From: Escherichia phage vB_EcoP-ZQ2
Length of the DNA: 64,000 nucleotides
Sequence record: NC_070874.1
Direction: 5' to 3' (one strand)
In this document: positions 5,976 to 33,800 of the stretch, one piece after another
Layout of the letters: each line of letters starts with the position of its first letter
How positions within the stretch are numbered: position 1 is the first letter of the stretch
Notes under the pieces: model-generated
Seen by the model: the letters and a program-made list of their open reading frames with translations, nothing else
Database searches by the model: none
What the model was told of the DNA's origin: nothing
Position numbers and translations under genes: made by a program

Positions 5976-6118
5976 TAACGTGTAAGGTGGGGTAGGGTAG
6001 TGGCTACACCGTCAACATACCGGGGGGGATGGTTGAGTGTAAGGGTGTAGCCCTAGGTGTACCACTGCAGCTGTACATAGCTATGACCAAAATGGTATGC
6101 AAAAATATGATAGCTATC

Positions 6119-6445
6119 CTACTTATAAGCAGTTAAATAGGAGGAAGGAATCTGGGAGAGGATGTGGTCATAGTAATAGCAGTATGCTTCACTATTGGTA
6201 GAGTTTACAGGCATACCTATGTAGTCAAACACCCACAAACAGAAGTGGTTGAGTTCGTGGATGAGTGTATGTAAGGGTTCCATAAAGATACCGATCAATA
6301 CTCGATTACCAGAGTAAGAAGTATATCCCTTACAACCATCCAAGTCTGGCTCATACCCTTTAAGTTTCTTGTACTTTTTAATGAAGGTATCCCGGTCGAA
6401 TACTACTTCTAACTGTACCGGGTAGGGGGATGTGTTTAGTTTCAT
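6119..6445 (-). CDS. small HExxH (zincin-like) putative metallopeptidase (108 aa)
   Basis: ORF track; HTLIHELNHF contains HExxH; start overlaps the stop of upstream paralog E by 4 nt (co-transcribed). Confidence 0.5.
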   Translation of the reverse strand: MKLNTSPYPVQLEVVFDRDTFIKKYKKLKGYEPDLDGCKGYTSYSGNRVLIGIFMEPLHTLIHELNHFCLWVFDYIGMPVNSTNSEAYCYYYDHILSQIPSSYLTAYK

Positions 6446-6726
6446 TGCCTTTCCTTGTAGATTGGGGTGTTACCCTCGAAGGATAGGATGTACTTGTCTG
6501 TATTGAGATGCCAAGGACTAAAGCTACCTTGCCAGGACATAGGTGTTCCTGGTTCAAGTAAATATACTTCTGCCTTCTTATTGTATAAGAAAAGTAATCC
6601 TTGTAATTCATGCAGAGACTGCTCATCTGGAACCAAGATAAGTACATCTGCGTCTAGATTAGTTATATCTTTATGACGGTAGTAGTCATCCTCAAGTACT
6701 GCTGAATAAATTTTACTGATAACCAT
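6442..6726 (-). CDS. member E of a tandem paralogous small-protein family (94 aa)
   Basis: Shares core LILVPDEQSLHELQGLLFLYN with the four upstream ORFs; TAATG stop/start overlap with member D. Confidence 0.6.
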   Translation of the reverse strand: MVISKIYSAVLEDDYYRHKDITNLDADVLILVPDEQSLHELQGLLFLYNKKAEVYLLEPGTPMSWQGSFSPWHLNTDKYILSFEGNTPIYKERQ

Positions 6727-7046
6727 TAGAGGCTCTCGTCGCTAGATAAATATGAGGTAGATGGGTAGAGGGTAATAAGTCTCCCTGTTAGGGTAGTTAC
6801 TACCATAGGTTCATTCTCAGACAGTACGTATACACTGGTGTGTTCTGGTATTTCCATAGAATCTACTATCTTAATGAACTGGATAGGTTGCCCCAACAGC
6901 AGGCAAGTACCAATGAACACATCTGCTTCTTCACTTGGCTCATACAGGATGGTGGTAACCCTCCCTTTACCTGCCAGAATATTATCCAGTGTGTATGGGG
7001 ATAAATAACAAGTAGTGGCAAAGCTAATAAGACAATACAGATGCAT
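6726..7046 (-). CDS. member D of the tandem paralogous family (106 aa)
   Basis: Core TTILYEPSEEADVFIGTCLLLGQ, a more divergent copy of the family motif. Confidence 0.55.
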   Translation of the reverse strand: MHLYCLISFATTCYLSPYTLDNILAGKGRVTTILYEPSEEADVFIGTCLLLGQPIQFIKIVDSMEIPEHTSVYVLSENEPMVVTTLTGRLITLYPSTSYLSSDESL

Positions 7047-7049
7047 ACC

Positions 7050-7361
7050 TTACTTCCTTACGTAGTAGTAACGATACTCACCCTTCTCATAACGACTCTC
7101 CCATTGATAGCTATCAGATACCATCATGTATGGAATAGGGTCATTAGCGTTATAGTTGGTATAGACAGAAGGGGGAATAATACATACAACCTTACGGTCA
7201 TTACCTGCTAGGAAGAGTTGACCCCTTACTTCATGGTAGTCCTCTAGGGTAGGAACCAGGATTACTTGCTGAGGATTGCTGTTCATGACTTCTTCTAAAG
7301 TGAAGTCAGTTGTATACATAGGCTCTTTAGCAAAACTGGGGATAGTCATTATGAATTTCAT
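7050..7361 (-). CDS. member C of the tandem paralogous family (about 103 aa; start uncertain, 7361 or 7319)
   Basis: Core VILVPTLEDYHEVRGQLFLAGN; the track ORF 7050..7436 overlaps member B in another frame, so an internal start is preferred. Confidence 0.55.
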   Translation of the reverse strand: MKFIMTIPSFAKEPMYTTDFTLEEVMNSNPQQVILVPTLEDYHEVRGQLFLAGNDRKVVCIIPPSVYTNYNANDPIPYMMVSDSYQWESRYEKGEYRYYYVRK

Positions 7362-7725
7362 GATGGATTTTCCTTCCTTTGGGAATGGGTCTGAAGTAAA
7401 CGGAAAGTGTTTTATTAAAGAGGTTATGTTCAACAATCATTTCCCAACCGGGTACTTTATAGAACCGGATTCCAGGGAAGAATGTTTCGAAGTCTGCATA
7501 CTCAGTAAGGTCATACACCTTTGGTTCAGTAAGTATCTCAGTGTTAAGTTGCAGGTTGTATAGGAAAAAAGAACCAATAATCTCGTGTGATTCCTCGCAA
7601 TCAGGAAAGAATACTGACTGTCTTGGGGATAACATCTTACTTACTACCTCTGGTTCCTCTAGGTAATATGGTTCTTGCTTGCGTAGCATACCGGTAATAT
7701 CAATATCAAAAGCATAAATGCTCAT
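7327..7725 (-). CDS. member B of the tandem paralogous family (132 aa)
   Basis: Core SVFFPDCEESHEIIGSFFLYN; AGGAGG RBS before the ATG at 7725; preceded by a terminator. Confidence 0.6.
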   Translation of the reverse strand: MSIYAFDIDITGMLRKQEPYYLEEPEVVSKMLSPRQSVFFPDCEESHEIIGSFFLYNLQLNTEILTEPKVYDLTEYADFETFFPGIRFYKVPGWEMIVEHNLFNKTLSVYFRPIPKGRKIHHEIHNDYPQFC

Positions 7726-7740
7726 AGTTGCATACCTCCT

Positions 7741-7777
7741 GAAAAAGAAATGGGGTAGAGCCTCTCGACTCTACCCC
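7741..7777 (-). terminator. rho-independent terminator (minus strand) between paralog A and paralog B
   Basis: 9-bp stem GGGGTAGAG(7752-7760)/CTCTACCCC(7769-7777), 8-nt loop; in minus sense followed by ATTTCTTTTTC and then the AGGAGG RBS of the next gene. Confidence 0.6.
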
Positions 7778-7925
7778 TTACCGTTTTCTATCACGGGTCA
7801 GTTCATCACCCTAGATACATGTGTATCGTTAGCCTACTAGGTAGGAAAGGAGCCGGGCAACCCTGACTGTAGAAGTTACTAACTCTTTACGAGTACCGCC
7901 ACTGTCTACTAGGCGGCATGACTAA

Positions 7926-8216
7926 TCACATCGTCACCGTCATCCGAACACTGTCTTTGCTTCGCCTGACGGAGACACTATGAGGTAATTTTGTGAAGAA
8001 CACAAGAGAGGAAAATGTTTTATCTAAAGTATAAGTTTCCCTTGGTTCTTTGATGGCAATGTTAGGACGGTTCTCTAATAGCATAATTCCAGACAACTCA
8101 TGGAATGTATCATCATCGTGGGTGACTATGATGTCACCTGGGAAGAAGCCAGCCTTGGTGTGGTCTATCTCTGCGTATACATCTTTGGAGTCGTGGACTC
8201 TCATATAGATTCTCAA
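7926..8216 (-). CDS. member A of the tandem paralogous family (96 aa); probable TTG start
   Basis: Core DIIVTHDDDTFHELSGIMLLEN; AAGGAG RBS 6 nt upstream of the TTG at 8216..8214; C-terminal extent uncertain. Confidence 0.5.
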   Translation of the reverse strand: MRIYMRVHDSKDVYAEIDHTKAGFFPGDIIVTHDDDTFHELSGIMLLENRPNIAIKEPRETYTLDKTFSSLVFFTKLPHSVSVRRSKDSVRMTVTM

Positions 8217-8387: not shown

Positions 8388-9077
8388 ATGAGTGAACTAA
8401 CTAAGCAGCAGATTATTAATGCCTTACCTGCTAACTTCAAAAACAGTGTGACCCAGGAGTTGGTAGACACAATTAACAACATAACCCAAGACCAACTAGT
8501 TGCTGAGTCCTTTCGTGAAAACTTTATCTCCTACTCTGGTGTAATGAAGGAAGGTAAGTTTAAGACACAGGACTACATGAATGCAGTTCAGTATGTAACT
8601 TATAAACATATGGGCTACTCAAATAAGGAAGCCTACTTCAAAACATTCCCCAACCGACAAGCAGAACTTGTTGCACGAGGAACCAGTGAGAAAGATATTA
8701 GTGCTTATGTATCTGCTTACCACAGGGGTAAGTTAGTTAACCTCATCATGGAACAAAGTTTGGTTCCAGTGTGGATTGTGAACCAAGACAATTATCAGAA
8801 GGCAATCAACGTTCAGGTTGAACTGATGACTTCAGCAGCAAGTGAGAAAGTAAGATGTGATGCAGCTAACTCTATCCTTACTCACTTAGCTAAGCCAAAG
8901 GACCAGGTAACGAATATCAATCTGGACTTAAGAGAGAACTCCGGATTAACTGACCTCAAGGCAACACTTGCTGCATTAGCTGAACAGCAGATTAATGCAA
9001 TCAATAGTGGTGTACCTACTAAAGAGGTTGCTGGTTCTAAACTAGTACGAGCAGATGAGGACATTACAGATGTCTGA
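8388..9077 (+). CDS. first gene of the late operon, directly upstream of the large terminase (N4 gp69-like position; possible small terminase subunit)
   Basis: ORF track (229 aa); overlaps the large terminase start; function inferred from position only. Confidence 0.55.
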   Translation: MSELTKQQIINALPANFKNSVTQELVDTINNITQDQLVAESFRENFISYSGVMKEGKFKTQDYMNAVQYVTYKHMGYSNKEAYFKTFPNRQAELVARGTSEKDISAYVSAYHRGKLVNLIMEQSLVPVWIVNQDNYQKAINVQVELMTSAASEKVRCDAANSILTHLAKPKDQVTNINLDLRENSGLTDLKATLAALAEQQINAINSGVPTKEVAGSKLVRADEDITDV

Positions 9078-10659
9078 GTTAATTAAACAGGAACTAGATG
9101 AATGGCTAGACCAGGTGGATTACTCCCACCTAAACTCTTCCAACTATGTTCCCAGTCAGTTTGCTCTTACCTTTGCTAACTTTATTAAGTTGGTTAATGG
9201 CAAAGAGGGTGAGTCCAACAAAACACCTCCGGTTCACTTAAAGATGCTGGATAAAATGATTAGTCCGAACCAGTACGTAGTTAACCTATGCTTCCGTGGT
9301 GCAGGTAAGACTGCTGTATTCATGGAATACTTTACATTGTTTCTGGCAGTGTTCGGTCACTTACCTAGCTTGGGTAAAGTAGAAGGAATGATTTACGTAT
9401 CTGACTCAATGGATAACGGTGCTAAGTCTGCACGTAAGAACATTGAGTTCCGTTACAAGAATAGTGAGTTCCTTCAGCAATGGATACCTGAAGCTACCTT
9501 TACGGATAACCTATTAGAGTTTCGTAATGTAGAAGGGCATCGACTCGGAGTTAAGCTGTTTGGTGCTAAGACAGGTCTTCGTGGTACGAAGATATATGGT
9601 AAACGCCCAACACTTTGTGTACTGGATGACTTGATTAGTGATGGTGATGCTAACTCCAAGACGAGTATGGAAGCTATTAAAGATACTGTCTATAAAGGTG
9701 TGAACCATGCTCTTGACCCTACCCGTCGTAAAGTAATCTTCAACGGTACTCCCTTTAATAAGGAAGATATTATCATTGAAGCAGTTGAGTCTGGTGCATG
9801 GGATGTAAACGTATGGCCCGTTTGTGAGAAATTCCCGTGTAGTAGAGAAGAATTTCAGGGTGCATGGGATGACCGTTTCTCTTACGACTACATCAAAGCC
9901 CAATATGACATGGCAGTTAAGACCGGTAAGCTGGCAGGTTTCTATCAGGAACTTATGCTCCGTATTAGCTCTGAAGATGAGAGACTGGTTCAGGATAGTG
10001 AAATAAGATGGTATAGCAGACAGCAACTATTAAAGATGAAGTCCTGCTATAACTATTACATTACAACTGACTTTGCTACATCGGAGAAACAGACCAGTGA
10101 CTATAGTGTCATATCAGTTTGGGCTTATAGTTCTAATGGAGATTGGTTCTGGGTTGATGGTGTGGCTAATCGTCAGCTTATGGATAAAAACTTTGATGAC
10201 CTGTTCCGTCTGGTTCAGGAATACCAACCACAAAACGTTGGGGTTGAAATCACAGGACAACAAGGTGGATTCATCTCACTTCTTCAGAAGGAAATGATTA
10301 ACCGTAATGTCTTCTTTAACTTTGCATCCTCTGTGGGTGGTAAGCCAGGCATCCGTCCTGTAACCTCTAAGCTGTCACGTTTTAACCTAGTAGTTCCATG
10401 GTTCAAAGCTGGTAAGATGTACTTCCCGGAAGAGTTGAGAGATTCAACTATTATGGGTCTGTTCATGGGCCAGATTAAACTAGCTACCATTAACGGAATA
10501 AAGGGTAAGGATGACTGTATTGATACTATCTCCATGCTGGGTTATCTCAATCCTTGGAAACCACAAGCAGGTATGACTATGGTGGATAACAAAGGTGACC
10601 CAATGTGGGATGATGAAGAAGAAGATAGTGTTAACCCACTACGTTCATACATTGTGTGA
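9055..10659 (+). CDS. terminase large subunit
   Basis: 534 aa; Walker A CFRGAGKTA, Walker B-like LCVLDD, C-terminal nuclease-type acidic residues (ITTDFA, DDCIDT). Confidence 0.8.
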   Translation: MRTLQMSELIKQELDEWLDQVDYSHLNSSNYVPSQFALTFANFIKLVNGKEGESNKTPPVHLKMLDKMISPNQYVVNLCFRGAGKTAVFMEYFTLFLAVFGHLPSLGKVEGMIYVSDSMDNGAKSARKNIEFRYKNSEFLQQWIPEATFTDNLLEFRNVEGHRLGVKLFGAKTGLRGTKIYGKRPTLCVLDDLISDGDANSKTSMEAIKDTVYKGVNHALDPTRRKVIFNGTPFNKEDIIIEAVESGAWDVNVWPVCEKFPCSREEFQGAWDDRFSYDYIKAQYDMAVKTGKLAGFYQELMLRISSEDERLVQDSEIRWYSRQQLLKMKSCYNYYITTDFATSEKQTSDYSVISVWAYSSNGDWFWVDGVANRQLMDKNFDDLFRLVQEYQPQNVGVEITGQQGGFISLLQKEMINRNVFFNFASSVGGKPGIRPVTSKLSRFNLVVPWFKAGKMYFPEELRDSTIMGLFMGQIKLATINGIKGKDDCIDTISMLGYLNPWKPQAGMTMVDNKGDPMWDDEEEDSVNPLRSYIV

Positions 10660-10665
10660 GGAACC

Positions 10666-11376
10666 ATGCAGAAATTATCGGAAGTATATCGTGGCTTAGC
10701 ACTAAGTACCTTGAAGGGTACTGGTGCAGTCACGGATGACAGATTAGGCATTGAGCCAGACAGTAAGCCAGAAATATTGGCTGCTATTAATGAAGGGTTG
10801 GTACGATTGCATAGTCGTTTCCCTCTCCGAACTAATAGCTGCATTGTGGAGATGAAAGAAGGTCGTACTGACTACCCTCTTCAATCTCGGTATGCTTACT
10901 CCCGGTTTACTAAACCTACTCTTGAGATTCAATATCCATATATCATGGATGGGTTCATGAAACCTTTCCAGGATGACGTTATTAAAATCTTAAATGTGTT
11001 TGATAACTCTGGGAATCGACGTAGACTGAACGACGACTCAGACCCTAATGCAATCTTCACCCCAAGACCTGATACTATTCAATGTATGCGACCTCGACAC
11101 TTCGAGGCACTTAACGTAACTTATCAAGCTAAGCACCCAGTACTTACGGGTGATGAAGAACAGGAAGTTGACTTAGCAGACACGCTAATGACAGCACTTC
11201 ATAACTGGGTGGGTTATCGTTACCACACTGGTTTGAATACTCCGGAAGCTAATGCTAAGGCAGTAGAGTATCTGCAAACGTATGAAAGCATCTGTGGTGA
11301 GGTTGTTGATTACGACCTGGCTAATGGAAGTATTTCAATTACCGAAACTAAATTTGAACAACGAGGATGGCGATGA
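10666..11376 (+). CDS. virion structural protein (N4 gp67-like position)
   Basis: ORF track (236 aa); between terminase and tail fiber; start 7 nt after the terminase stop. Confidence 0.55.
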   Translation: MQKLSEVYRGLALSTLKGTGAVTDDRLGIEPDSKPEILAAINEGLVRLHSRFPLRTNSCIVEMKEGRTDYPLQSRYAYSRFTKPTLEIQYPYIMDGFMKPFQDDVIKILNVFDNSGNRRRLNDDSDPNAIFTPRPDTIQCMRPRHFEALNVTYQAKHPVLTGDEEQEVDLADTLMTALHNWVGYRYHTGLNTPEANAKAVEYLQTYESICGEVVDYDLANGSISITETKFEQRGWR

Positions 11377-14300
11377 ACGCACATACCCCCTTTGATGCAA
11401 ATCAGGATTGGTCTAATCCTTACTGTCAGAACAGTTCCAATGATCCTATGGTAGATGCACTACTTGGTAATGCTTACCATGTGGTTCGAACTGTTTACTG
11501 TAACTTGGGTAACCTGAAACTTATCTATGACTTCCTTAACCAGTATGGAATGGTACTTGGTGTACAGTCTGAAGCAGAACTTAAAGCACTAACAACCAAA
11601 GCTAAGTATGCACGTATCTATGGATTCTCTCGTGCAGGTGACCGTCAGGTAACTGACTACCTGTATGTGGAAGGTGATCGTACGGGTATTATTCCAGACG
11701 ATCCAAAGGCAACCGGTTCGTGGATTACTGTTGCTACTTCTGGTTCTAATAGTGGTGGTACTTCCTCTGGGGAAGGTGCTTATATTCCTTGGGTATACGA
11801 CAATGGTTCTGCTGCTGGTGGGGAAACCACAATCAACGTACCAGATGGTACGGTAGGTGTACCTTTTATCATTATTAATGGGGATATGCAGTATGTAGGA
11901 CGTGGCTTTGAATTTAATGCAGATAGCCTGTCGGTAACTCTGGCTCAACCTCTGGAAGAAGGTGATGAGGTAGTATTCCTTCTGACTGGAGTTCCTGCTG
12001 TACCAGATAATCCTAACGTTAATGACTGGGTTCAGATTAACTGGTTATATAACAATGGTGCTGCTATAGGTGGTGAGCAGGTTATTGCTATCCCTTATAC
12101 CTTCCAGTCTGTTCCTGCTGTGTATAAGAATGGGCTTCGTTTGTATAAAGGATTAGCTACTGAGTCATATACTGCTGACCCGGATAACCAACGTATACTT
12201 CTTACAGAACCACTGGCAACCAATGACCGGCTAATTGTGCAGATTGGTGGTGAAGCACAGGTACTGGAAACAGCAGACCATACCCTTCAGGAAGTTGCTC
12301 GTGCTACTAACGTTAAGGATAGTGAGGTAATTCTTAGTACAGATACTACCCAGTTCCTGAATAATAAGAAGGTTATTTATTCTGTTAGTGAGCAGAAAGC
12401 ATATGGATTACCTGTACTACCAACTAACGTATTCATTCAGTCTGTAAGCAATGGCAAGTTAATTTACTCACCTGGATCCATTGAAGTAGACCTAATCCCC
12501 GTACCCAATTCTGCAGAGAGTTTGGAACAGGCACTGTCAGCTGAAAATGGTGCATCGTTGATTGTAGATAAACTCCCGTATGCTGGAGCAGTACCAAGAA
12601 CCCAGCACGATATAAATTCACAATTTAGTAATATTCTTGACTTTCTAGGCGATGGGTATGATGGCACTACGGATGCTGCAGGAGCCTTTATCTCTGCCAA
12701 CACACTCGTTCCGAAAAGTAGAGAGATTGTTGTTCCAAGTGGGGTGTATCTTCTCAATAGTGACGTGGATTGTTCCGGTCGCCGTTTTACATTTGAGGAG
12801 CCTGTGACATTTACTGGTATTGGTAAGTTCTACCGGGCTATTGTCAATAGAATTATGCCGGATGGAACAACTCGGGTTTCTCAGTGGGCCAAACCAGGAA
12901 CTACCGAATATATGACGGCATCTGCTGTTTTCGGTGACAATGGGGCTACAGCAACTGGCATTCAGATTGGTGGAGCTGTGCCATACAATGGCACAGATGG
13001 TGTCATGATGTTTACCGATGGTAGCTCTGGGTGGTTAGGTGTTCGTGCATCTAAGTGGCCCCACCCTACGGAAATGGCGATATATCCAAGCTCTAAAGCT
13101 GGGTCATGTCAGACAATCTCAGGCAGTAATGCTGTAAAAAGACTGTCGGGTGCTAGCATTACGGCTGAAGCGATTGGGAAACCAATTTCCATCTATGATT
13201 CCCTATATACCATATCGACCATAACAGCAGATGGTTTTACTGTTAAGAATATTAATGGAACACCCGTTACTTGGGGGTCAACGGCAACTCACTCATTCAT
13301 TTTATGCTATTACAATGGTAGTGGTTTGTGCAGCGTATCTGGTACTACTGTGACACGTATTAGTGGCGACCCATTTGTAATTCCTGACCCGACAGTACCA
13401 CAAACAATGACTATAAACGGTATTGACTACCGTGTAGTGTCTTTTACAGACCCTCAACATGTTACCCTTAATTCTGCTCCAGGGGATTCAGCGTTAACGG
13501 AATATAAATTCTGGGGCACAGTCAATAGCCTTAACTCTGCTCTTAGGATTCATCGACTCAATGCTGCTGGGTTTGAGGAAAATATTAGTCTCATTGCTAA
13601 TAATGCTGGCTATTTTGCATTACACGCCGCAGCTGGTAACCCAGCCAATGAGCAGTATCCAATCTATATTGGGTCAGGTTGGGAAGATAACGGACAGATG
13701 CGTAAGAGTATTATCTCTGCAGGTAATGGAGATGTAACTCTTGGTGGGGGTTATGGAAATGGGCCGTTATACGTGCCATATAATCAAACATCTGGCCGCC
13801 CGCAAGTCATGGTGGATAACAGTACGGGTACAGCCACCATTTCGTCTACTGGCGGACCTACTCCGGATGCATCGTTAGCTATTAAAGCTAAGGGTACAGG
13901 TAGGGTTGTGTTTCACTCCGAGGTCGGGGTTAACGCTGCGATATACCCCTACATAGATAACGTTTATTCATGCGGTCAATCCGGGAATAGGTGGTCACAG
14001 ATATGGGCATCGAACGCCACCATCCAGACTTCTGATGGGACGACAAAAACTGCAGTTCAAGCATCCGACTTATCTACAGACTTTATTCTTGGTCTAAACC
14101 CTGTTTCTTATAAGAACATTGTCGGGGGAAATGTTGTAGAAGAGGTTGAAGATGGCGTAGAAGAAATTGAACGACAAGTGGTAGAAAAAGTTACTTCTTC
14201 TGAAGAAGTCCATGAACGCGTTGTTGATGGTGATGAAGTCTACTACGTTCGCAAGTTTGTTAACAAGGAAGTAGAACGACCAGTATTTCATGATGTTGAG

Positions 14301-14594
14301 CTGCGTGACGAGCTTGGCAATGTCATTGGTACAATCAAAACACCATTGATGGAAAAAGTGGTTGTTCCAAAAACTCGTCAAGTTATTACGCCAGTACCAG
14401 GGAAACGGACGCACTATGGATTTATTGCACAGGAGGTTAAAGACCTCGTAGACGAATTAGGAATTTCCGATTTCGGTGGGTACGTTGAAGGTGAAGATGG
14501 TAAACTTGGTCTTCGCTACGGTGAGTTCATCTCTCCGATAGTGTCTTGCTTGCAGGATATTATCAAGCGACTGGAACTGCTAGAGAAAAAGTAA
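11367..14594 (+). CDS. tail fiber / appendage protein with C-terminal intramolecular-chaperone (peptidase S74-like) autoproteolytic domain
   Basis: 1075 aa, Gly/Thr/Ser-rich; C-terminal IQTSDGTTK...YGFIAQEV...GLRYGEFISP resembles the SDxxxK cleavage site and conserved C-terminus of tail-fiber chaperone domains. Confidence 0.7.
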   Translation: MAMNAHTPFDANQDWSNPYCQNSSNDPMVDALLGNAYHVVRTVYCNLGNLKLIYDFLNQYGMVLGVQSEAELKALTTKAKYARIYGFSRAGDRQVTDYLYVEGDRTGIIPDDPKATGSWITVATSGSNSGGTSSGEGAYIPWVYDNGSAAGGETTINVPDGTVGVPFIIINGDMQYVGRGFEFNADSLSVTLAQPLEEGDEVVFLLTGVPAVPDNPNVNDWVQINWLYNNGAAIGGEQVIAIPYTFQSVPAVYKNGLRLYKGLATESYTADPDNQRILLTEPLATNDRLIVQIGGEAQVLETADHTLQEVARATNVKDSEVILSTDTTQFLNNKKVIYSVSEQKAYGLPVLPTNVFIQSVSNGKLIYSPGSIEVDLIPVPNSAESLEQALSAENGASLIVDKLPYAGAVPRTQHDINSQFSNILDFLGDGYDGTTDAAGAFISANTLVPKSREIVVPSGVYLLNSDVDCSGRRFTFEEPVTFTGIGKFYRAIVNRIMPDGTTRVSQWAKPGTTEYMTASAVFGDNGATATGIQIGGAVPYNGTDGVMMFTDGSSGWLGVRASKWPHPTEMAIYPSSKAGSCQTISGSNAVKRLSGASITAEAIGKPISIYDSLYTISTITADGFTVKNINGTPVTWGSTATHSFILCYYNGSGLCSVSGTTVTRISGDPFVIPDPTVPQTMTINGIDYRVVSFTDPQHVTLNSAPGDSALTEYKFWGTVNSLNSALRIHRLNAAGFEENISLIANNAGYFALHAAAGNPANEQYPIYIGSGWEDNGQMRKSIISAGNGDVTLGGGYGNGPLYVPYNQTSGRPQVMVDNSTGTATISSTGGPTPDASLAIKAKGTGRVVFHSEVGVNAAIYPYIDNVYSCGQSGNRWSQIWASNATIQTSDGTTKTAVQASDLSTDFILGLNPVSYKNIVGGNVVEEVEDGVEEIERQVVEKVTSSEEVHERVVDGDEVYYVRKFVNKEVERPVFHDVELRDELGNVIGTIKTPLMEKVVVPKTRQVITPVPGKRTHYGFIAQEVKDLVDELGISDFGGYVEGEDGKLGLRYGEFISPIVSCLQDIIKRLELLEKK

Positions 14595-14660: not shown

Positions 14661-14682
14661 AAACCCCTCTTCGGAGGGGTTT
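14661..14682 (+). terminator. stem-loop after the tail fiber gene (UUCG tetraloop; weak U tract)
   Basis: 9-bp stem AAACCCCTC/GAGGGGTTT with TTCG loop. Confidence 0.4.
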
Positions 14683-14705: not shown

Positions 14706-17057
14706 ATGAACGAAATGTTCTCACAAGGTGGTAAAGGCTCCACTGGTATACTTACCAATAAGCAAGCCATTGCCCGTAAGTTTGGTGTTAAGCAGAATGA
14801 AGTAGTCTACTTTGCTGTAGGTGTAGACTTAGGTGGTTACAAAGTAATCTATGATAAGACTACCCAGCGTGCTTACTCATTGCCCGTACTTCCTTCAGGA
14901 ACCACTGCTGTAAGTCTTAGCAACCAGGCAGTCCTGGTTCATTCAGCAGGTACAGTTGATTTAGGGGAACTGGCTGCTACATGCAGGGAGTTCGTGAACT
15001 TGTCTGACACGTTTGCTACTGGTTTGGTGGTAAATACTAGAAATGAATTACTATTTCATAATGGTATAGGTTATTCATATTTAGGTTCTCTACCTGTAAC
15101 TATTACCGCAGGAACTAACCCTGTTGGCAATGCAGACTGGAAGCCACAAACTGATCCTAATTTGAGAGAAGATTTATCTTCACCTGACCTAAATAAGGGA
15201 GCTTCTCTTGTTACTTTCCACTACTTAGGCGATACGGTGGAAAGCACATTAGGTAACATTCAATCAGTACCTTTTGAGCATTTCGGCGGCGGAACCTCAA
15301 AAACTGGGGAAGAAAACACCGCTGCTTTGAAAGCGGCTATCTCTTCACAGTTTAAGCACATTTGGTTTAATAACGGTCCCTATACTTTCTCTGGGGATAC
15401 TAATTTTACTGGAATCAATGGTAAAATTTTTGAGTCTAATACAAACGCTGCTTTTGTTTTCTCAGGTTTATTTTTTAACTTCAAATCTCCAGTGGACACC
15501 GAGTTCAGGGGGATCACGTTCAGTGCTCCTCCTACCAATACGGTGTTAAACTCCGTGACTCTTAGTAACTTCACTAATATTAAATTTACTAAGTGTAAGT
15601 TTCTTGGTTTTGGGGGAGACACTACAAATACCGCAGGTAGTGCAGCACTCATACTTTATGCTGGTGATTCCGAGACGGCCCAGTATGCTGCTGGTAGTTC
15701 TACTGGTGCTGTTCTTGATGGGTGCTATTTTGACGGCCTTCGCGACCGTTTGTGTAACTTCGCGGTTAGGGTCTACACAGAATTTACTGTGCCGACTGCA
15801 TCTATTGCAACTAATTCCAATAATAAAATCATTAACTGTGATTTTGTCGGGCATAACTGGAACGCAGTTGAAATAGCCGGGCCTAGTACCCACAGCAACA
15901 TTGTTAGTAACTGTTCAGCTACTAACCCAGGACTGTGCCCATTTGACCTGGATAAAGGGACGCACGATAACATCGTAGAAAATATTACGATACGTAATTT
16001 GAAAGGAGACCTTGGCGTAAGTGGGTTCACCCGCGCGTCGGCTGTCAACATTCAGGGTGCCACTGCTGACACCTACTTTGCATACAATAACACCGTTAGA
16101 AATGTAACATGTGTCACAACTAAGGATAATATCGACGCGTATAACGCCACCGGTTTTGGTTCCGGGTTCGCTGCTGTTAGTCTGGCATACTGCTACAACA
16201 ACTTTGTAGATAATGTCACTATGACATGTAACGGTGGTGTTCCGACCAAACCATCAAATGGCACAATGGCATTCTGTCATCTCACGTTTGAATCTATATC
16301 CGGGTGTACCGTTAATCGGGTGTCTACGGTTAACGCGTCTCATGGCATATTAATGACTTCATTCAAAAGTCAATCTATGTCGGCACTTAACGAGCCAAAT
16401 CATTTTTCCACGTTCCGTAACTCTGGGGCCAACCTAGAAGGTGAAATATTTTACGGGTATGCTACCGCAGCGGGTAGTCCATTGAAGATTATCCTCAATG
16501 ACATAGACCTAACTACATCTGGTGCTCAAAGTAACCTTACGTACAACGGACACAAATATGCAATTGTGTACCGCACAGCTGGAAGCTCTGTTAACTATTT
16601 AAGGATTGAGGAAAGCCGCATCGGATTAGCTACTGATTCTAATCTCTGGTTTGCTATGTGCACAGGGCCGCAAATTGGTTTGCGAGAGGTGCAAATCCAC
16701 GATGGCAACGGTACAGCGAATGTTAATAGTCGTTTTATGGAATCCAATGGTTTGTCATTAATAACAAATATTGCTATCGATAACGTATATGGGGATCTAG
16801 AGAGAAAACCTATCCAGATACAGACGGCGTTAGCCGGGCTGACGGGTGGTACGTTTAAACTTGTTGGTGGGATTTCGGATAGTGGGTTACCACAATCTAG
16901 ACCTGTTACGTTATTCGCCAATTCAGCAACCACATTCCCATCAGCTGCTCAGTTTGATACGAATATAATCTTACGTCGTACATCGGCTACTACGGGCCAA
17001 GCGTGGGGATGGATTAGCACAGGAACAGCGTGGGCAGCGTTAGGCTCACTGACGTAG
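14706..17057 (+). CDS. tailspike / receptor-binding protein with parallel beta-helix (pectate-lyase-like) repeats
   Basis: 783 aa; recurring NIVSNCSATN, NIVENITIRN, NNTVRNVTCV, NNFVDNVTMT segments typical of right-handed beta-helix depolymerases. Confidence 0.65.
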   Translation: MNEMFSQGGKGSTGILTNKQAIARKFGVKQNEVVYFAVGVDLGGYKVIYDKTTQRAYSLPVLPSGTTAVSLSNQAVLVHSAGTVDLGELAATCREFVNLSDTFATGLVVNTRNELLFHNGIGYSYLGSLPVTITAGTNPVGNADWKPQTDPNLREDLSSPDLNKGASLVTFHYLGDTVESTLGNIQSVPFEHFGGGTSKTGEENTAALKAAISSQFKHIWFNNGPYTFSGDTNFTGINGKIFESNTNAAFVFSGLFFNFKSPVDTEFRGITFSAPPTNTVLNSVTLSNFTNIKFTKCKFLGFGGDTTNTAGSAALILYAGDSETAQYAAGSSTGAVLDGCYFDGLRDRLCNFAVRVYTEFTVPTASIATNSNNKIINCDFVGHNWNAVEIAGPSTHSNIVSNCSATNPGLCPFDLDKGTHDNIVENITIRNLKGDLGVSGFTRASAVNIQGATADTYFAYNNTVRNVTCVTTKDNIDAYNATGFGSGFAAVSLAYCYNNFVDNVTMTCNGGVPTKPSNGTMAFCHLTFESISGCTVNRVSTVNASHGILMTSFKSQSMSALNEPNHFSTFRNSGANLEGEIFYGYATAAGSPLKIILNDIDLTTSGAQSNLTYNGHKYAIVYRTAGSSVNYLRIEESRIGLATDSNLWFAMCTGPQIGLREVQIHDGNGTANVNSRFMESNGLSLITNIAIDNVYGDLERKPIQIQTALAGLTGGTFKLVGGISDSGLPQSRPVTLFANSATTFPSAAQFDTNIILRRTSATTGQAWGWISTGTAWAALGSLT

Positions 17058-17063
17058 TAAAAT

Positions 17064-17090
17064 AAAAGGCCCATTTGGGCCTTTTCTTAT
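17064..17090 (+). terminator. rho-independent terminator after the tailspike gene
   Basis: AAAAGGCCC-ATTT-GGGCCTTTT followed by CTTAT. Confidence 0.6.
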
Positions 17091-17302
17091 ATAGAGTTTA
17101 CTGTTTGCATTACCCTAACTGATACTGCTGTTAGGGTAATTACTTGCCCAAAGATATTAAGCATACCTAGCTGAATACCATCCCCCATGTATTGATGCCA
17201 GACACTATGTCTGGATGTACCCCAACATACTAAGTATTATCTAAGAGTCATCTTATGATATGGCCCTATTGGGAATTCTAACTACACAACTACGGTAATA
17301 TT

Positions 17303-30855: not shown

Positions 30856-33800
30856 TTGAACAGGAATCATGCTATGTCAACATTTGACCGTCTGGCAGGT
30901 TTCGCAGACAGCATCACTACTGCTAAGCAAGTCGATGTCTCTACTGCAACCTCTCGGAAACAAGCTGAACAAGGGCAAAACCCTTTCCAATTAACCCCAC
31001 AGAACGCCTACCAGTTACAGGCAGGTCGTGCCGGTGATTTAGGTGCTGGTGCATTTGACCCAGGTTCTATTCAGGCAGATTTTACTAATGCCTCTCCTCT
31101 TGAAATCATAAACAAGTATGGCAATGAGCAAGGAATGGACATTCTTAATGCTCGTGTCAATGCAGCTAATGCTGTTCGTCGTGATTTAACTAAGAGTCGT
31201 ACATATGGTGAAGCACTTGGTGATACCCTTTCTGGTGTTGGTCTTGGTGTTGCTAATACCCTTGGGGGCATTGCTGCTCTTGGCACAGGCTTGGTCAATG
31301 ATAATGCCGGGGCATCCATTGCTTCCGGTCTTGACTGGTTGAACAAAGGTGTACACAACCTACAGTCTGATGCACTGAATGCTCGTCGTAATGTAGTACA
31401 GAACCAGAACGTAATATCTGCACAGGAAAACGAAAAACAATATAAGCAGGATATTGATAAAGGAGAAAGTGAACTCGTTGCTTCCTTGTCTCGTATTGGT
31501 CGGGATGCTTACGATTCAGTTGCTAATACTTTGTCCAATGGCATGGCTGCTACAGATGGTATTGCTGAAGGTGTTGGTTCACTGTTTACTGGTGGTCCAC
31601 TTATCCGTGGTGTATCTGCACTTGGTAAAGTAATGGTAGGTGGGGATAAAGCTGTTAAGGGTATTACCTTAGCTGCTGAATTAGGTTATCGTCCTGCACG
31701 TATTGCACAGACTGCTGGTCGTGTTGCTGCACCTGCTATAGCAATTGGTGGTATGGAAGCTGGTGGTGCATACCAACAGACTGCTAATGAAATTATGGAA
31801 ATGCCATTCAGTGAACTGGCTGCTAAATCTCCTGTATACCAACAACATATTAAAGATGGTTTAACTCCTGAAGAAGCACGACGTCAGACTGCATCTGAAA
31901 CAGGTATCACTGCTGCTGGCTTAACCGCCCCAGTTGCTGCTCTCACTGGTCCACTGGTATCCAAGTTTGAACTTAACCCACTTAAGGTAGGTTCACTGGC
32001 TGGTGCTGGTTCTAACATGCTACGTGAGACTGTGGAGGAAGGTATTCAATCCGGTTTCGGTCAATTCGCACAGAACAAAGCAATTCAGGGTAACGTGGAT
32101 GCTAATCGTGATTTGCTTAAAGGTGTAGGTGAACAAACTGGTCTAGGTGCATTGTATGGCTTTGGTTCTGCTGGGGTTGCTCAAGCTCCTGGTGTAACTG
32201 CTAAGACTGCCGTTGCTGCCGTTGGTCCTGCTGTACGTACTACCCTGGCTGGTGCTTCTCTGGCTGGTAAGGCACTAGCAAAAGTAGCTTCTCCTATTAC
32301 TAACATTCTGGTTCAGCGTGGAGAAGAAGTTGCTAAGCGAAATGAGCAAGCATCTCCTGTATCAGACGTTACGGTTAATGCTGCTGCACAAGAAGCTACT
32401 GCTCAGGCAGAACAGGCTCAAGCAACTGTTCAGGAAGCAGTAGATGCAATGGACATTTCTCCAGAAGAGAAAGCTGCTGCTACTCAGTATGCTGCTGACT
32501 TAACTCAGGCAATGAAGTTTGACCCAGTAGAACTGGAACAAGCTAGTCCAGCAATCCGTGAAGCTGTTTCTGGTTCCACTAACCGTGTTGAAGCTATTCA
32601 GAAGATGGCTGACCTGGTTAATACTGCCGAAGATCCTAACGTTCAAATGGAAGCTGCAATCCAGATGTATGACAACATCATGTCTATGGATAGCTTCATT
32701 AACCGTGACCCAGGTGCATTAGCTAATCTGGAACAGGGTTCTCCTGCTGCTAATATTGTTGACCAGTTCTCCGGTCTGATGGCTAACGTTCAGAATACAC
32801 CGAAGGTACTTCGTGCATTCCGTGCCATCCATTCCATGATTCAGGAACAGGCAGAAGCAGGTAAACTGAAGGCTACTGAAGAAGCTAACCAAGCCCAAGC
32901 AAACAACATTGCTATGGCTGCTGATATGTCTCCAGAAGTACTGGATGCTGATTCAGTGAACATGGTTCTGAAACACGCAAGTGAAGGTAAGATTACGCTG
33001 GGGAATCGTCAGCGTGCTGCCCTGCAATCTGCTGCTGCTCTATTGCAAGGAGCACGAGAATTTGATGCTAAAGCAGAAGAGCTAGGCTTACGTCCTCAAG
33101 ACATTGTTAGTAAACAAATTAAAACCGACGAATCTCGTTCTAATGAAGGCCAGTACTCTGCGTTGCAACATGCTAAACGCATTCGTTCTGCGTATAACTC
33201 TGGTAACTTCGATTTGGCTTCCGCTTATCTCGATGACTTTATGAAGTTCGCCCAGCACATGCAGAATAAGGTCGGAGCGTTGAATGAGCATTTGATTTCT
33301 GGGAATGCGGATAAGAATAAGTCTGTCCATTATCAGGCTCTTACTCCCTCCCGTGAATGGGTACGTAGTCGTACTGGCCTCGGTGTTAATCCGTATGATA
33401 CCAAGTCTGTTAAGTTTGCCCAGCAAGTAGGACTGGAAGCCAAGACCGTAGCTGATATTGCTAACGCACTTGCTACGGCTTACCCGGAGCTTAATGTTTC
33501 TCATGTGAAAGTTACCTCATTGGATTCACGTCTGGACAAGCCTGCTGCCCAGGTAGTTAAAGAGTTCCGTCAGGGCAATCTTGACGCTGCTCAATCCCAA
33601 CAGACTAATGAACCAGTGAATCAGGTTGATGAAACTCCTGTTACAAAACAGGAACCAGTTACCCCTACTGTACAGACTAAACCCTCTGTTAGTGAAGCTG
33701 TTAAAACAGAACCCACTATTAAAGAGTCTAAACCACAGTCTGTAAAAGAACCTGAGAACCAGTCTGAAAAACAGGATACCGTTGATCAGTCTACTGAATC

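Follow-up and report, generated by a model that had tools for sequence, protein, structure and literature searches.

Among the closest described relatives of the locus analyzed here is the gp66/gp63.1 pair of phage G7C (Prokhorov et al. 2017; PDB 4QNL). The N-terminal anchor of G7C gp66, which the literature calls a tailspike, attaches that protein to the particle, while gp63.1 binds not the particle but gp66 residues 138-294 (PMC6872550), and this binding requires domain XD3 (PMC8825819). The two homologous proteins of Shigella phage B2, gp48 and gp49, co-purify, and their structure was determined as a single complex (PMC11654681).

The 64,000-nucleotide stretch of Escherichia phage vB_EcoP-ZQ2 studied here (NC_070874.1; hereafter the window) is ~93% identical at the nucleotide level to genomes of the genus Gamaleyavirus (N4-like, Schitoviridae) and encodes a 3611-aa virion RNA polymerase. 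TerL, gp67, gp66, gp63.1, gp63, holin, endolysin, spanin, and portal follow the same order as in G7C. An earlier note had picked out two open reading frames as a fiber and a tailspike, and both are present on the plus strand, at 11367..14594 (1075 aa) and 14706..17057 (783 aa, 83.2 kDa). They are already annotated in vB_EcoP-ZQ2 as "tail protein / Peptidase S74 domain-containing protein" and "tail spike protein," respectively. We consider the pair likely to specify the anchor-branched receptor-binding complex of an N4-type podophage similar to G7C; in this complex the fiber would cleave itself, the spike would dock on the fiber, and a glycan would probably be cleaved. This overall design is a known architecture, and the uncharacterized part is confined to the particular receptor-binding modules.

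Conserved anchor and docking modules

Immediately upstream of the fiber gene, in the position of G7C gp67, lies a gene for a 236-aa gp67-like virion structural/adaptor protein (10666..11376, plus strand), which matches phrog_2125 "virion structural protein" at 4.7e-91 and scores 26.7 bits against PF24175 SU10_adaptor (cut-off, 27). Its stop overlaps the probable start of the fiber (ATGA). Because of this overlap, a GAGG 6 nt upstream, and the annotated starts of both G7C gp66 and RefSeq YP_010659964.1, the true start is probably the second ATG, at 11373, giving a fiber of 1073 aa and 115.2 kDa. From M3 onward the product is an exact match to YP_010659964.1 (vB_EcoP-ZQ2). This fiber, or long tailspike, is an allele of G7C gp66, with 72% identity over aa 3-399.

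Its first module is a virion-anchor domain (about aa 3-135; 11373..11771, plus strand) that aligns with Moo19 gp82 (PDB 9d80_D) and B2 gp49 (9d83_D) and would fix the trimerized fiber to the tail. Two T4-gp10-like domains follow, XD2 (about aa 139-215) and XD3 (about aa 222-300), together spanning 11781..12266 on the plus strand. They are supported both by PDB matches to the region (6w4q over aa 139-399, 7rej CBA120 TSP4-N over aa 96-210, and 7xy1) and by an internal duplication score of 103, compared to 25.7 +/- 4.9 for shuffled sequences. Beyond them lies a tailspike "head" domain (about aa 301-391; 12267..12539, plus strand) homologous to the N terminus of the spike, with 38% identity and E=6e-11 between fiber aa 308-374 and spike aa 20-86. 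Conservation of the fiber within the genus ends with the head, nucleotide similarity across the genus breaking off near nt 1100 of the fiber gene.

The spike is an allele of G7C gp63.1, 61% identical to it over aa 1-166. Its N-terminal docking/head domains (aa 1-165; 14706..15200, plus strand) match G7C gp63.1 (4qnl, 6e-54), CBA120 TSP2 (4oj5, 6e-53), and B2 gp48 (9d84_A, 1e-50). In the B2 partners solved by cryo-electron microscopy (9d83/9d84), both proteins find a counterpart, the fiber N terminus at 6e-140 and the spike N terminus at 1e-50. By homology, we infer that XD2/XD3 form a docking platform on which the N-terminal ~165 residues of the spike would sit, most likely at XD3, so that the spike would not be bound directly to the virion. 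The earlier note read the pair as dual adhesins; two receptor-binding proteins at a host-range locus are indeed found, but a branched complex is more likely than independent attachment. Nothing specific speaks for separate attachment of fiber and spike to the tail, apart from the two gp10-like domains, one of which is without a known partner in G7C. The spike has no anchor domain and begins directly with a gp63.1/TSP-type docking domain, and the homologous B2 proteins behave as one complex, which makes this alternative most improbable.

Between the two genes lies a conserved GC-rich stem-loop (AAACCCCTC/GAGGGGTTT; 14661..14682, plus strand). In G7C this position is likewise occupied by a stem, with compensatory changes; the element has reportedly been called a terminator-like structure and a possible recombination boundary (bioRxiv 10.1101/542787). 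A terminator-like hairpin is also present directly 3' of the spike gene (17058..17091, strand not assigned).

The exchanged fiber module and its chaperone

Downstream of the head, the fiber carries a receptor-binding module (about aa 392-789; 12540..13733, plus strand) that opens with a pectate-lyase-type β-helix cap and continues in an uncharacterized β-rich fold. From nt 12600 to the fiber stop, the gene is 83.5% identical at the nucleotide level to Kuravirus phages 1-6af and FH3, and the module was acquired by swapping. Within the genus, conservation is limited to the N-terminal docking modules, the receptor-binding modules of both the fiber and the spike having been swapped in.

The cap bears on the pairing, in the earlier note, of a fiber with a glycan-degrading spike: the S74-type fiber stands, but a fiber that has a β-helix cap, and whose G7C allele is termed a tailspike, may be enzymatic too. 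A fiber acting as a depolymerase or glycan-modifying tailspike would give the appendage two enzymatic heads, a refinement compatible with the branched complex. Sf6 tailspike 2vbe (1e-12), phiAB6 tailspike, and GH55 match the module profile, on the cap only, and hhalign aligns the module with the spike family at 92% probability across 73 columns. The homologues P0136 and P0145 pass PF12708, with P0151 just under its cut-off (25.5 versus 27 bits), and charged residues (D551, E569, D611, D668, R727, H729, R730, E737, E738, H753) are conserved. In addition, the gp66 slot of phage UE-S5a, of the same genus, is occupied by a genuine endosialidase with an S74 domain. On the other hand, the match to β-helix proteins covers only about 100 residues, no relative with a known function could be detected for the rest of the module, and the strands predicted there (7-11 residues) are long and do not resemble β-helix rungs. 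AF2 modeled the monomer poorly (pLDDT 63, pTM 0.30), and no convincing Foldseek match emerged from the model, endoNF being matched with a TM-score of only about 0.1. We therefore regard an enzymatic fiber as possible but doubtful.

The module is followed by a stalk, presumably a triple β-helix (about aa 790-888; 13734..14030, plus strand), which contains Arg875 and ends at Thr888. Support comes from a sub-threshold match to PF12219 End_tail_spike (21.2 bits; cut-off, 25) and from T5 pb1 (4uw8), which aligns over aa 805-903. The last 187 residues form a C-terminal intramolecular chaperone, or Peptidase_S74 domain (aa 889-1075, 20.9 kDa; 14031..14591, plus strand). The three motifs named in the earlier note lie at aa 886-894 (IQTSDGTTK; nt 14022-14048), 1017-1024 (YGFIAQEV; nt 14415-14438), and 1048-1057 (GLRYGEFISP; nt 14508-14537), and its assignment of an S74-type chaperone is borne out by PF13884, which scores 27.4 bits with the whole fiber and 32.5 bits with the C-terminal 226 aa, above the curated cut-off of 22. 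The family profile of the domain also matches the solved chaperones 6eu4 (4e-16), T5 pb1 4uw8 (3e-13), GA-1 gp12 3gud (1e-8), and K1F endoNF 3gw6 (2e-7).

The catalytic dyad, Ser889 (14031-14033) and Lys894 (14046-14048, plus strand), is intact. Among homologues, S889 is kept in 32/32, K894 in 31/32, and R875, which aligns with endoNF "SNRF," in 29/32. The spacing is that of endoNF, where R897 precedes the serine of the S911/K916 dyad by 14 residues (PMC8326128). Mature chains 4hiz, 4uw7, and 5aq5 stop at the column of Thr888, and the released GA-1 domain (3gud) begins at that of Ser889. Self-cleavage is thus predicted between Thr888 and Ser889. Judging from these alignments, the fiber very probably sheds its folding chaperone by self-cleavage: the domain would nucleate folding of the trimeric stalk, after which Ser889 and Lys894 would catalyze the cut, assisted by Arg875, leaving a mature virion fiber of ~94 kDa.

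A Glu/Val-rich insertion of about 92 aa (about aa 925-1012; 14139..14402, plus strand) interrupts the domain, and because of it Pfam aligns only the last third of its S74 profile (positions 37-57). Such a large and highly charged insertion, together with that restricted alignment, could mean that the domain is a disabled relic, remaining uncleaved as a distal knob on the fiber. We consider this very unlikely, since Ser, Lys, and the upstream Arg are almost invariant in relatives with and without the insertion, the insertion sits at the place of the endoNF β-hairpin tentacle, away from the dyad (PMC8326128), and confidence in the model of the domain is good (pLDDT about 70-89), down to the terminal helix formed by aa 1051-1074. 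The insertion occurs in about two-thirds of the family and is missing from 134-aa versions. AF2 models it as long β-hairpins with strands of 7-17 residues (pLDDT about 80). In an active chaperone, as we prefer to read the domain, it probably lengthens the tentacle embracing the stalk, as described for endoNF (PMC8326128).

A predicted β-helix tailspike as candidate depolymerase

The spike and UniProt A0A8F3HKK5, "Tail spike protein [vB_EcoP-ZQ2]," show 100% identity over 623 columns. The C-terminal ~600 residues of the spike are predicted to form a right-handed parallel β-helix, with the body at about aa 187-720 (15264..16865, plus strand). The AF2 model of aa 161-783 (pLDDT 74, pTM 0.79) shows short strands in a regular stack, and Foldseek matches it with probability 1.0 to β-helix lyases and tailspikes, including RbmB lyase, phi92 colanidase, the P22/HK620/Sf6 tailspikes, and K5 lyase, although TM-scores to solved β-helices are modest (0.2-0.45) at 8-14% identity. 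The sequence family is small, with 30 representative clusters at E<=1e-30, and the β-helix found zero matches among the 50,697 phage records searched. No Pfam family was recognized in the spike at E<=0.01, but two homologues, 34-36% identical, pass PF12708. The term "pectate-lyase-like," applied to the spike in the earlier note, holds at the level of fold only, the hydrolase or lyase class not being assignable.

The proposal that the spike is a candidate depolymerase gains support from conserved acidic residues. E389 (15870-15872) and D416 (15951-15953), with K417 (15954-15956, plus strand), are kept in 31/31 family members, and both acidic residues fall in strands that are modeled with high confidence. 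The two are 27 residues apart, a spacing that by the modeled strand pattern corresponds to roughly one rung. The candidate active site consists of E389 and D416, stacked on neighboring rungs, and the adjoining K417. The P22, Sf6, and HK620 endorhamnosidases use carboxylate pairs, which this spacing recalls.

Alternatively, the spike might be a non-catalytic β-helix adhesin that binds a glycan or protein without cutting it, like pneumococcal PfbA (4mr0), which is among the Foldseek matches; the lack of a catalytic Pfam family and of an assignable chemistry would fit such a role. Against it, a charged cluster (K260, R348, R355, E389, D416, K417, E580) is near-invariant at family identities of 19-36%, and tested or annotated alleles at the gp63.1 slot are enzymes: the G7C esterase, the UE-S5a protein annotated as a K5 lyase, and the Alt63 allele, reportedly a depolymerase (bioRxiv 10.1101/542787). 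On balance, this alternative is unlikely. We favor a trimeric β-helix that would bind, and most likely cleave, a polysaccharide of the cell surface, either O-antigen or capsule. The final ~63 residues (16866..17054, plus strand), at pLDDT 25-33 in the monomer model but with T742 and W776 conserved, presumably form a trimerization or receptor-contact tip. Each tail appendage would then present two different receptor-binding heads, which would determine host range.

Relation to known systems

The window shares its genus, gene order, and inter-gene stem-loop with G7C, and the N-terminal parts of both proteins (about 380 aa of the fiber and about 165 aa of the spike) are conserved between them at the identities given above. 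In contrast, neither C-terminal receptor-binding part is related to its G7C counterpart: there, gp66 lacks an S74 chaperone, and gp63.1 is an SGNH esterase rather than a β-helix. UE-S5a (Gamaleyavirus) has the same layout, placing an S74-ended enzyme, annotated as an endosialidase, on the gp66 anchor and a β-helix enzyme, annotated as a K5 lyase, as the docked spike. However, its fiber has an endosialidase β-propeller, a barrel, and a full PF12219 stalk, whereas the fiber in the window lacks the propeller domains and its stalk match is sub-threshold. Similarly, our spike has no detectable sequence similarity to K5 lyase, 2x3h being a fold-level match only, at 12% identity.

Structures of Moo19 gp82 and B2 gp49/gp48 (PDB 9D80-9D84; PMC11654681) share the anchor and gp10-like module with the fiber (E=1.6e-156 and 6e-140, respectively), and the solved N terminus of the docked B2 spike is the part matched by ours. 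Unlike the fiber, B2 gp49 is a 410-aa adapter without a receptor-binding head, and in both B2 and Moo19 the spike is an esterase. CBA120 TSP2/TSP4 (PDB 6W4Q, 7REJ, 4OJ5) have the same gp10-like XD2/XD3 branching domains and TSP head domain, but within a myovirus baseplate complex of four spikes with another anchor domain.

The Ser-x4-Lys dyad is common to the fiber and to K1F endoNF (3GW6), T5 pb1 (4UW8), GA-1 gp12 (3GUD), and MyRF (PMC8326128). With these chaperones the fiber further shares the Arg 14 residues upstream of Ser, the HxGxIAQE motif, the terminal helix, and the cleavage position, although identity outside the motifs is low and the fiber adds about 92 residues between its PVSYK and HYGFIAQ motifs. 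The nearest relatives of the exchanged part are the 1040-aa fibers of Kuravirus (Escherichia phages 1-6af and FH3), with 86% amino acid identity over aa about 412-1075, a stretch that takes in all of the receptor-binding module, the stalk, and the chaperone. Their N-terminal virion-attachment part is entirely unlike that of the fiber, and they belong to Gordonclarkvirinae, in contrast to the Schitoviridae phage described here.

Gene order and noncoding elements of the adhesin locus

In the window, the fiber gene (11367 to 14594, + strand, 1,075 aa) and the spike gene (14706 to 17057, + strand, 783 aa) are adjacent and, as in the G7C type, are flanked by a gp67-like gene encoding a 236-aa structural protein (10666 to 11376) on one side and by a Gamaleyavirus lysis cassette on the other. 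The large terminase gene (9055 to 10659) lies upstream of the pair, the lysis cassette and portal gene lie downstream, and the genes run in the G7C order: gp68 (TerL), gp67, gp66, gp63.1, gp63, holin, endolysin, spanin, and portal. The window is ~92 to 94% identical at the nucleotide level to Gamaleyavirus genomes (pSb-1, Bp4, PGN829.1, and others). A 3,611-aa open reading frame with a TTG start (30856 to 41691) encodes a giant virion-encapsidated RNA polymerase, an enzyme typical of N4-like phages. Gamaleyavirus identity and the virion polymerase gene therefore identify the source as a G7C-like, N4-type podophage.

The fiber probably starts at the second ATG (11373, within the start region 11363 to 11376), giving a product of 1,073 aa, because this codon overlaps the stop of the upstream gene as ATGA, because the GAGG that abuts the first ATG (11367) sits 6 nt before it, and because both G7C gp66 and the RefSeq ZQ2 fiber begin at the second Met. 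The fiber sequence from Met3 onward matches exactly YP_010659964.1, a "tail protein" of Escherichia phage vB_EcoP-ZQ2 that UniProt names "Peptidase S74 domain-containing protein"; for the spike, UniProt lists a 100% identical protein, A0A8F3HKK5 ("Tail spike protein [vB_EcoP-ZQ2]"). Both genes were thus already public in RefSeq and UniProt, annotated essentially as the earlier note proposed when it described a fiber with a self-cleaving chaperone next to a β-helix tailspike.

A 9-bp perfect GC-rich stem-loop (AAACCCCTC / GAGGGGTTT; 14661 to 14682) lies between the two genes, and G7C carries a stem at the equivalent site with compensatory base changes (CCCCGC/GCGGGG). Published work describes this inter-gene stem-loop as resembling a terminator and as a boundary at which recombination might swap modules (bioRxiv 10.1101/542787). 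The spike gene is followed by 245 nt of noncoding sequence (17058 to 17302) with three hairpins, the first terminator-like (17058 to 17091), the second with 11-bp perfect arms (17109 to 17140), and the third at 17198 to 17214. At the position equivalent to 17058 to 17302, the related phages nithesis and pSb-1 have a gene on the reverse strand (208 aa); because this gene is missing from the window, the interval may be the scar of a deletion or of recombination.

N-terminal domains and proposed attachment to the particle

The fiber is an allele of G7C gp66: its residues 3 to 399 share 72% identity with that protein, and the two are unrelated past aa 399. In the PDB, the fiber N-terminus matches Moo19 gp82 (9d80; E = 1.6e-156), B2 gp49 (9d83; 6e-140), a 927-aa tail fiber (6w4q; 6e-30), and a tailspike fragment of 341 aa (7rej/7rfo; 6.5e-13) that we take to be CBA120 TSP4-N. 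An anchor (about aa 3 to 135) is followed by two T4-gp10-like domains, XD2 (about aa 139 to 215) and XD3 (about aa 222 to 300), the arrangement that a G7C-type complex demands of its first protein. These two domains are a significant internal duplication (11781 to 12266; score of 103 versus 25.7 ± 4.9 in shuffles). The head domain that comes after them (aa 308 to 374; 12288 to 12488) is homologous to spike aa 20 to 86 (14763 to 14963) at 38% identity (E = 6e-11). With its duplicated domains and spike-like head, the fiber therefore resembles a complete tailspike to which an anchor-plus-branching module has been fused. The spike, an allele of G7C gp63.1, has no anchor, as expected of the second partner in the G7C type, and begins directly at a gp63.1/TSP-type docking domain: its first 165 residues match G7C gp63.1 (4qnl; 6e-54, 61% identity) and a 776-aa tailspike (4oj5) that is presumably CBA120 TSP2, and its N-terminus also matches B2 gp48 (9d84_A; 1e-50).

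According to PMC6872550 and PMC8825819, G7C gp66 is fixed on the particle via its N-terminal anchor and binds gp63.1 through residues 138 to 294 (gp10-like D2/D3), with XD3 required for binding and gp63.1 making no particle contact of its own; PMC6872550, citing Prokhorov 2017, also describes the gp66 and gp63.1 trimers as a 1:1 complex. In B2, the homologous gp48 and gp49 form a physical complex solved by cryo-EM (PMC11654681, to which the 9d80-type PDB entries were tied by protein names and N-terminal sequence); the proposed docking of spike on fiber has a direct structural precedent in this complex. We consider an anchor-branched architecture likely, in which each tail appendage would comprise a fiber trimer anchored on the tail and a spike trimer carried on its gp10-like platform. 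The alternative, that fiber and spike attach independently of each other, is highly improbable.

Receptor-binding module and chaperone of the fiber

Beyond its N-terminal part, the fiber has a different history. The first ~1,100 nt of the gene match Gamaleyaviruses only; from nt 12600 to the stop, the gene shares 83.5% nucleotide identity with the tail-fiber gene of Kuravirus 1-6af and FH3, members of a different phage family. This shared module, comprising the receptor-binding region, stalk, and chaperone (window 12600 to 14594; 6001 to 7992 in the Kuravirus fiber locus L001), stops matching exactly at the fiber stop codon. Judged from these alignments, the module is the product of a relatively recent cross-family transfer involving Gamaleyavirus and Kuravirus. 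Genome records of Pantoea, Lelliottia, and E. coli, which are possibly prophages, also contain it at about 50% amino acid identity, and metagenomic proteins carry it behind TSP-type N-termini.

The module begins with a pectate-lyase-fold cap ("DFxGDG...TD...A"). Its profile matches the Sf6 tailspike at 1e-12, as well as the phiAB6 tailspike, GH55, and rhamnogalacturonase A; it aligns to the spike family by hhalign with 92% probability over 73 columns, and PF12708 is passed by two fiber homologues (P0136 and P0145). Beyond the cap, no recognizable relative of the module was found, and the monomer model is unreliable in that part: apart from the chaperone and two short segments, the AlphaFold2 model of fiber aa 380 to 1075 is poor (pLDDT of 63, pTM of 0.30). 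Foldseek matches of this model (endoNF, 3gw6) were dropped as evidence of fold, with TM-scores of about 0.1, and a candidate internal repeat (aa 571 to 648 against 649 to 725) scored no better than shuffled sequences (30 versus 27.7 ± 5.7). We propose that the fiber head would engage a second ligand, distinct from that of the spike. Several charged residues are conserved in the module; that the fiber is itself an enzyme is compatible with the anchor-branched architecture, though less likely than not.

The three motifs on which the earlier note had based an S74-type chaperone are all present, at fiber aa 886 to 894, 1017 to 1024, and 1048 to 1057. PF13884 (cutoff of 22 bits) scores 27.4 bits with the full-length fiber, rising to 32.5 bits when its C-terminal 226 aa are taken alone, and it is matched by all of the aligned family members (14/14; best E = 8e-15). 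The alignment in the fiber is confined to profile positions 37 to 57 (21 residues in the last third of the profile) because of an insertion of ~92 residues. This Glu/Val-rich insertion (aa ~925 to 1012; window 14139 to 14402) lies between the PVSYK and HYGFIAQ motifs and is present in about two-thirds of the chaperone family, the remainder being compact 134-aa domains. AlphaFold2 models the chaperone domain with a pLDDT of about 70 to 89 and a terminal helix (aa 1051 to 1074), and renders the insertion as very long β-hairpins; on this model, it is probably an elongated "tentacle" embracing a longer stalk.

When 34 homologues are aligned, Ser889 is present in all 32 occupied rows; Lys894 is kept in 31/32 and Arg875 in 29/32. 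The Ser889/Lys894 dyad sits in TSDGTTK, with Ser889 in the column of the Ser that is mutated in 4uw8 and 3gw6, and Arg875, 14 residues before Ser889, aligns with "SNRF" of endoNF. In the published Ser-Lys dyad, Lys lies five residues past Ser (endoNF S911/K916, MyRF S587/K592), and endoNF R897, which precedes Ser by 14 residues and lies in the stalk, assists cleavage (PMC8326128); both spacings are identical in endoNF and the fiber. The profile of the chaperone-domain family (A4) matches the solved chaperone domains 6eu4 (4e-16), 7y5s (2e-14), and T5 pb1 4uw8 (3e-13), and also GA-1 gp12 3gud (1e-8), endoNF 3gw6 (2e-7), and MyRF 7dc3 (0.03). A chance S74 match, considered because the Pfam alignment is partial, was rejected on the strength of these profile-level matches and the conservation of the dyad.

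Thr888 falls in the column where the processed chains 4hiz, 4uw7, and 5aq5 terminate, and Ser889 in the column where the released GA-1 domain 3gud starts. As predicted from these alignments, the fiber very likely cuts itself between Thr888 and Ser889, and the predicted products would very probably be a 94.4-kDa mature fiber and a 20.9-kDa released chaperone. That the chaperone is instead a relic that is no longer cleaved is quite unlikely. We propose that the fiber stalk would fold with the aid of the C-terminal chaperone, which would subsequently be cut off. In the stalk (aa 790 to 888), presumably a trimeric triple β-helix, PF12219 scores 21.2 bits, below its cutoff of 25, and T5 pb1 aligns with the stalk region at fiber aa 805 to 903; the pLDDT of the stalk is <50 in the monomer AlphaFold2 model, in which its fold is not visible.

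The predicted spike β-helix body and comparison with known phages

The ~620 residues that follow the N-terminal part of the spike bear no relation to the G7C gp63.1 esterase. Pfam returned no family on the spike at E ≤ 0.01, β-helix and pectate-lyase families included; two homologues, P0121 and P0122 (34 to 36% identical to the spike), pass PF12708 at 28.2 and 28.5 bits (cutoff of 27) through the N-terminal cap only. Searching the PDB with the spike-family profile found nothing beyond a cap motif of about 30 to 40 residues, and tblastn of the body found no match at E ≤ 1e-5 in 50,697 phage records, a collection that seems to lack the source record itself. A word-indexed search of 5.8 billion proteins recovered five relatives of the body (97, 94, 73, 36, and 34% identity), and a profile search run exhaustively over 1.84 billion representatives recovered 30 clusters at E ≤ 1e-30; weaker matches, among those listed, were numerous and mainly on the cap. 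The spike body family is small and entirely uncharacterized.

The 73% identical copy lies at the end of a tail-gene block in a 43-kb phage-like contig (L004, 8001 to 10250), behind a different N-terminus (MSSGCGDVL...), so the spike module is mobile too. This contig, which carries tail proteins of 743 and 850 aa, DUF1833, and DNA polymerase A, is tentatively siphovirus-type.

Structure prediction bears out the β-helix that had been suggested for the spike: AlphaFold2 models aa 161 to 783 as a β-helix strand stack (pLDDT of 74, pTM of 0.79) whose short stacked strands are typical of a right-handed β-helix. Foldseek returned 66 PDB matches at E ≤ 1e-3, the best 50 of which are almost all β-helix enzymes, tailspikes, and adhesins; the matches include RbmB polysaccharide lyase, phi92 gp150 colanidase, the P22, HK620, and Sf6 tailspikes, and K5 lyase, at a probability of 1.0 with modest TM-scores (0.2 to 0.5) and 8 to 14% identity. 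In BFVD there were 155 matches at E ≤ 1e-3, and the named ones among the best 50 are mostly tail spikes or pectate-lyase and β-helix proteins; many viral "pectate lyase superfamily" proteins figure among the structural matches.

Eight residues (K260, R348, R355, N386, E389, D416, K417, and E580) are near-invariant among 32 spike-family members of 19 to 36% identity, with E389, D416, K417, R348, and R355 kept in 30 to 31 of 31. E389 and D416 both lie in high-confidence strands 27 residues apart, approximately one rung by the strand pattern of the model, which suggests stacked carboxylates as in endoglycosidase tailspikes at this candidate active site; a Lys/Arg-based lyase mechanism is equally possible. 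We favor the reading that the spike is an enzyme, with reasonable though not strong confidence, and consider a non-catalytic spike unlikely. The spike would engage a surface polysaccharide, either O-antigen or capsule, and probably degrade it. More speculatively, the spike could be a depolymerase of undescribed glycan specificity or catalytic arrangement and the fiber module, a cap plus an unknown fold, a second enzyme of a new type. Such a pairing is possible rather than probable; if true, one branched podophage appendage would bear two novel enzymatic heads.

The locus determines which hosts this lytic E. coli phage infects, and Gamaleyavirus, the genus in which ZQ2 is placed, is used in phage-therapy collections. 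For head swapping, the fiber has its module boundary at about nt 12480 to 12600 and the spike at about nt 15165; spike aa 161 to 783 is a construct for expression as a candidate depolymerase. For engineering, the useful elements are these swap boundaries, the predicted Thr888/Ser889 processing site, and a spike that would ride on the fiber.

In UE-S5a, of the same genus, the gp66 slot (L007, 1507 to 5154) holds a genuine K1-type endosialidase with all five endosialidase Pfam domains, including S74, and the gp63.1 slot (L007, 5339 to 7055) holds a gene annotated as a K5 lyase. A gp66 allele terminated by S74 is therefore an established variant, and the gp66/gp63.1 scaffold is also used for capsule-specific heads. 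The architecture, the chaperone mechanism, and C-terminal module exchange in G7C-like phages have already been published (PMC6872550; bioRxiv 10.1101/542787), and what is new is only that these receptor-binding modules, above all the rare spike β-helix family, have never been characterized before. The locus raises no new question; mosaicism is well documented for G7C-like adsorption modules, and this further case adds a cross-family exchange with Kuravirus in the fiber and, in the spike, one with a 43-kb phage-like contig.
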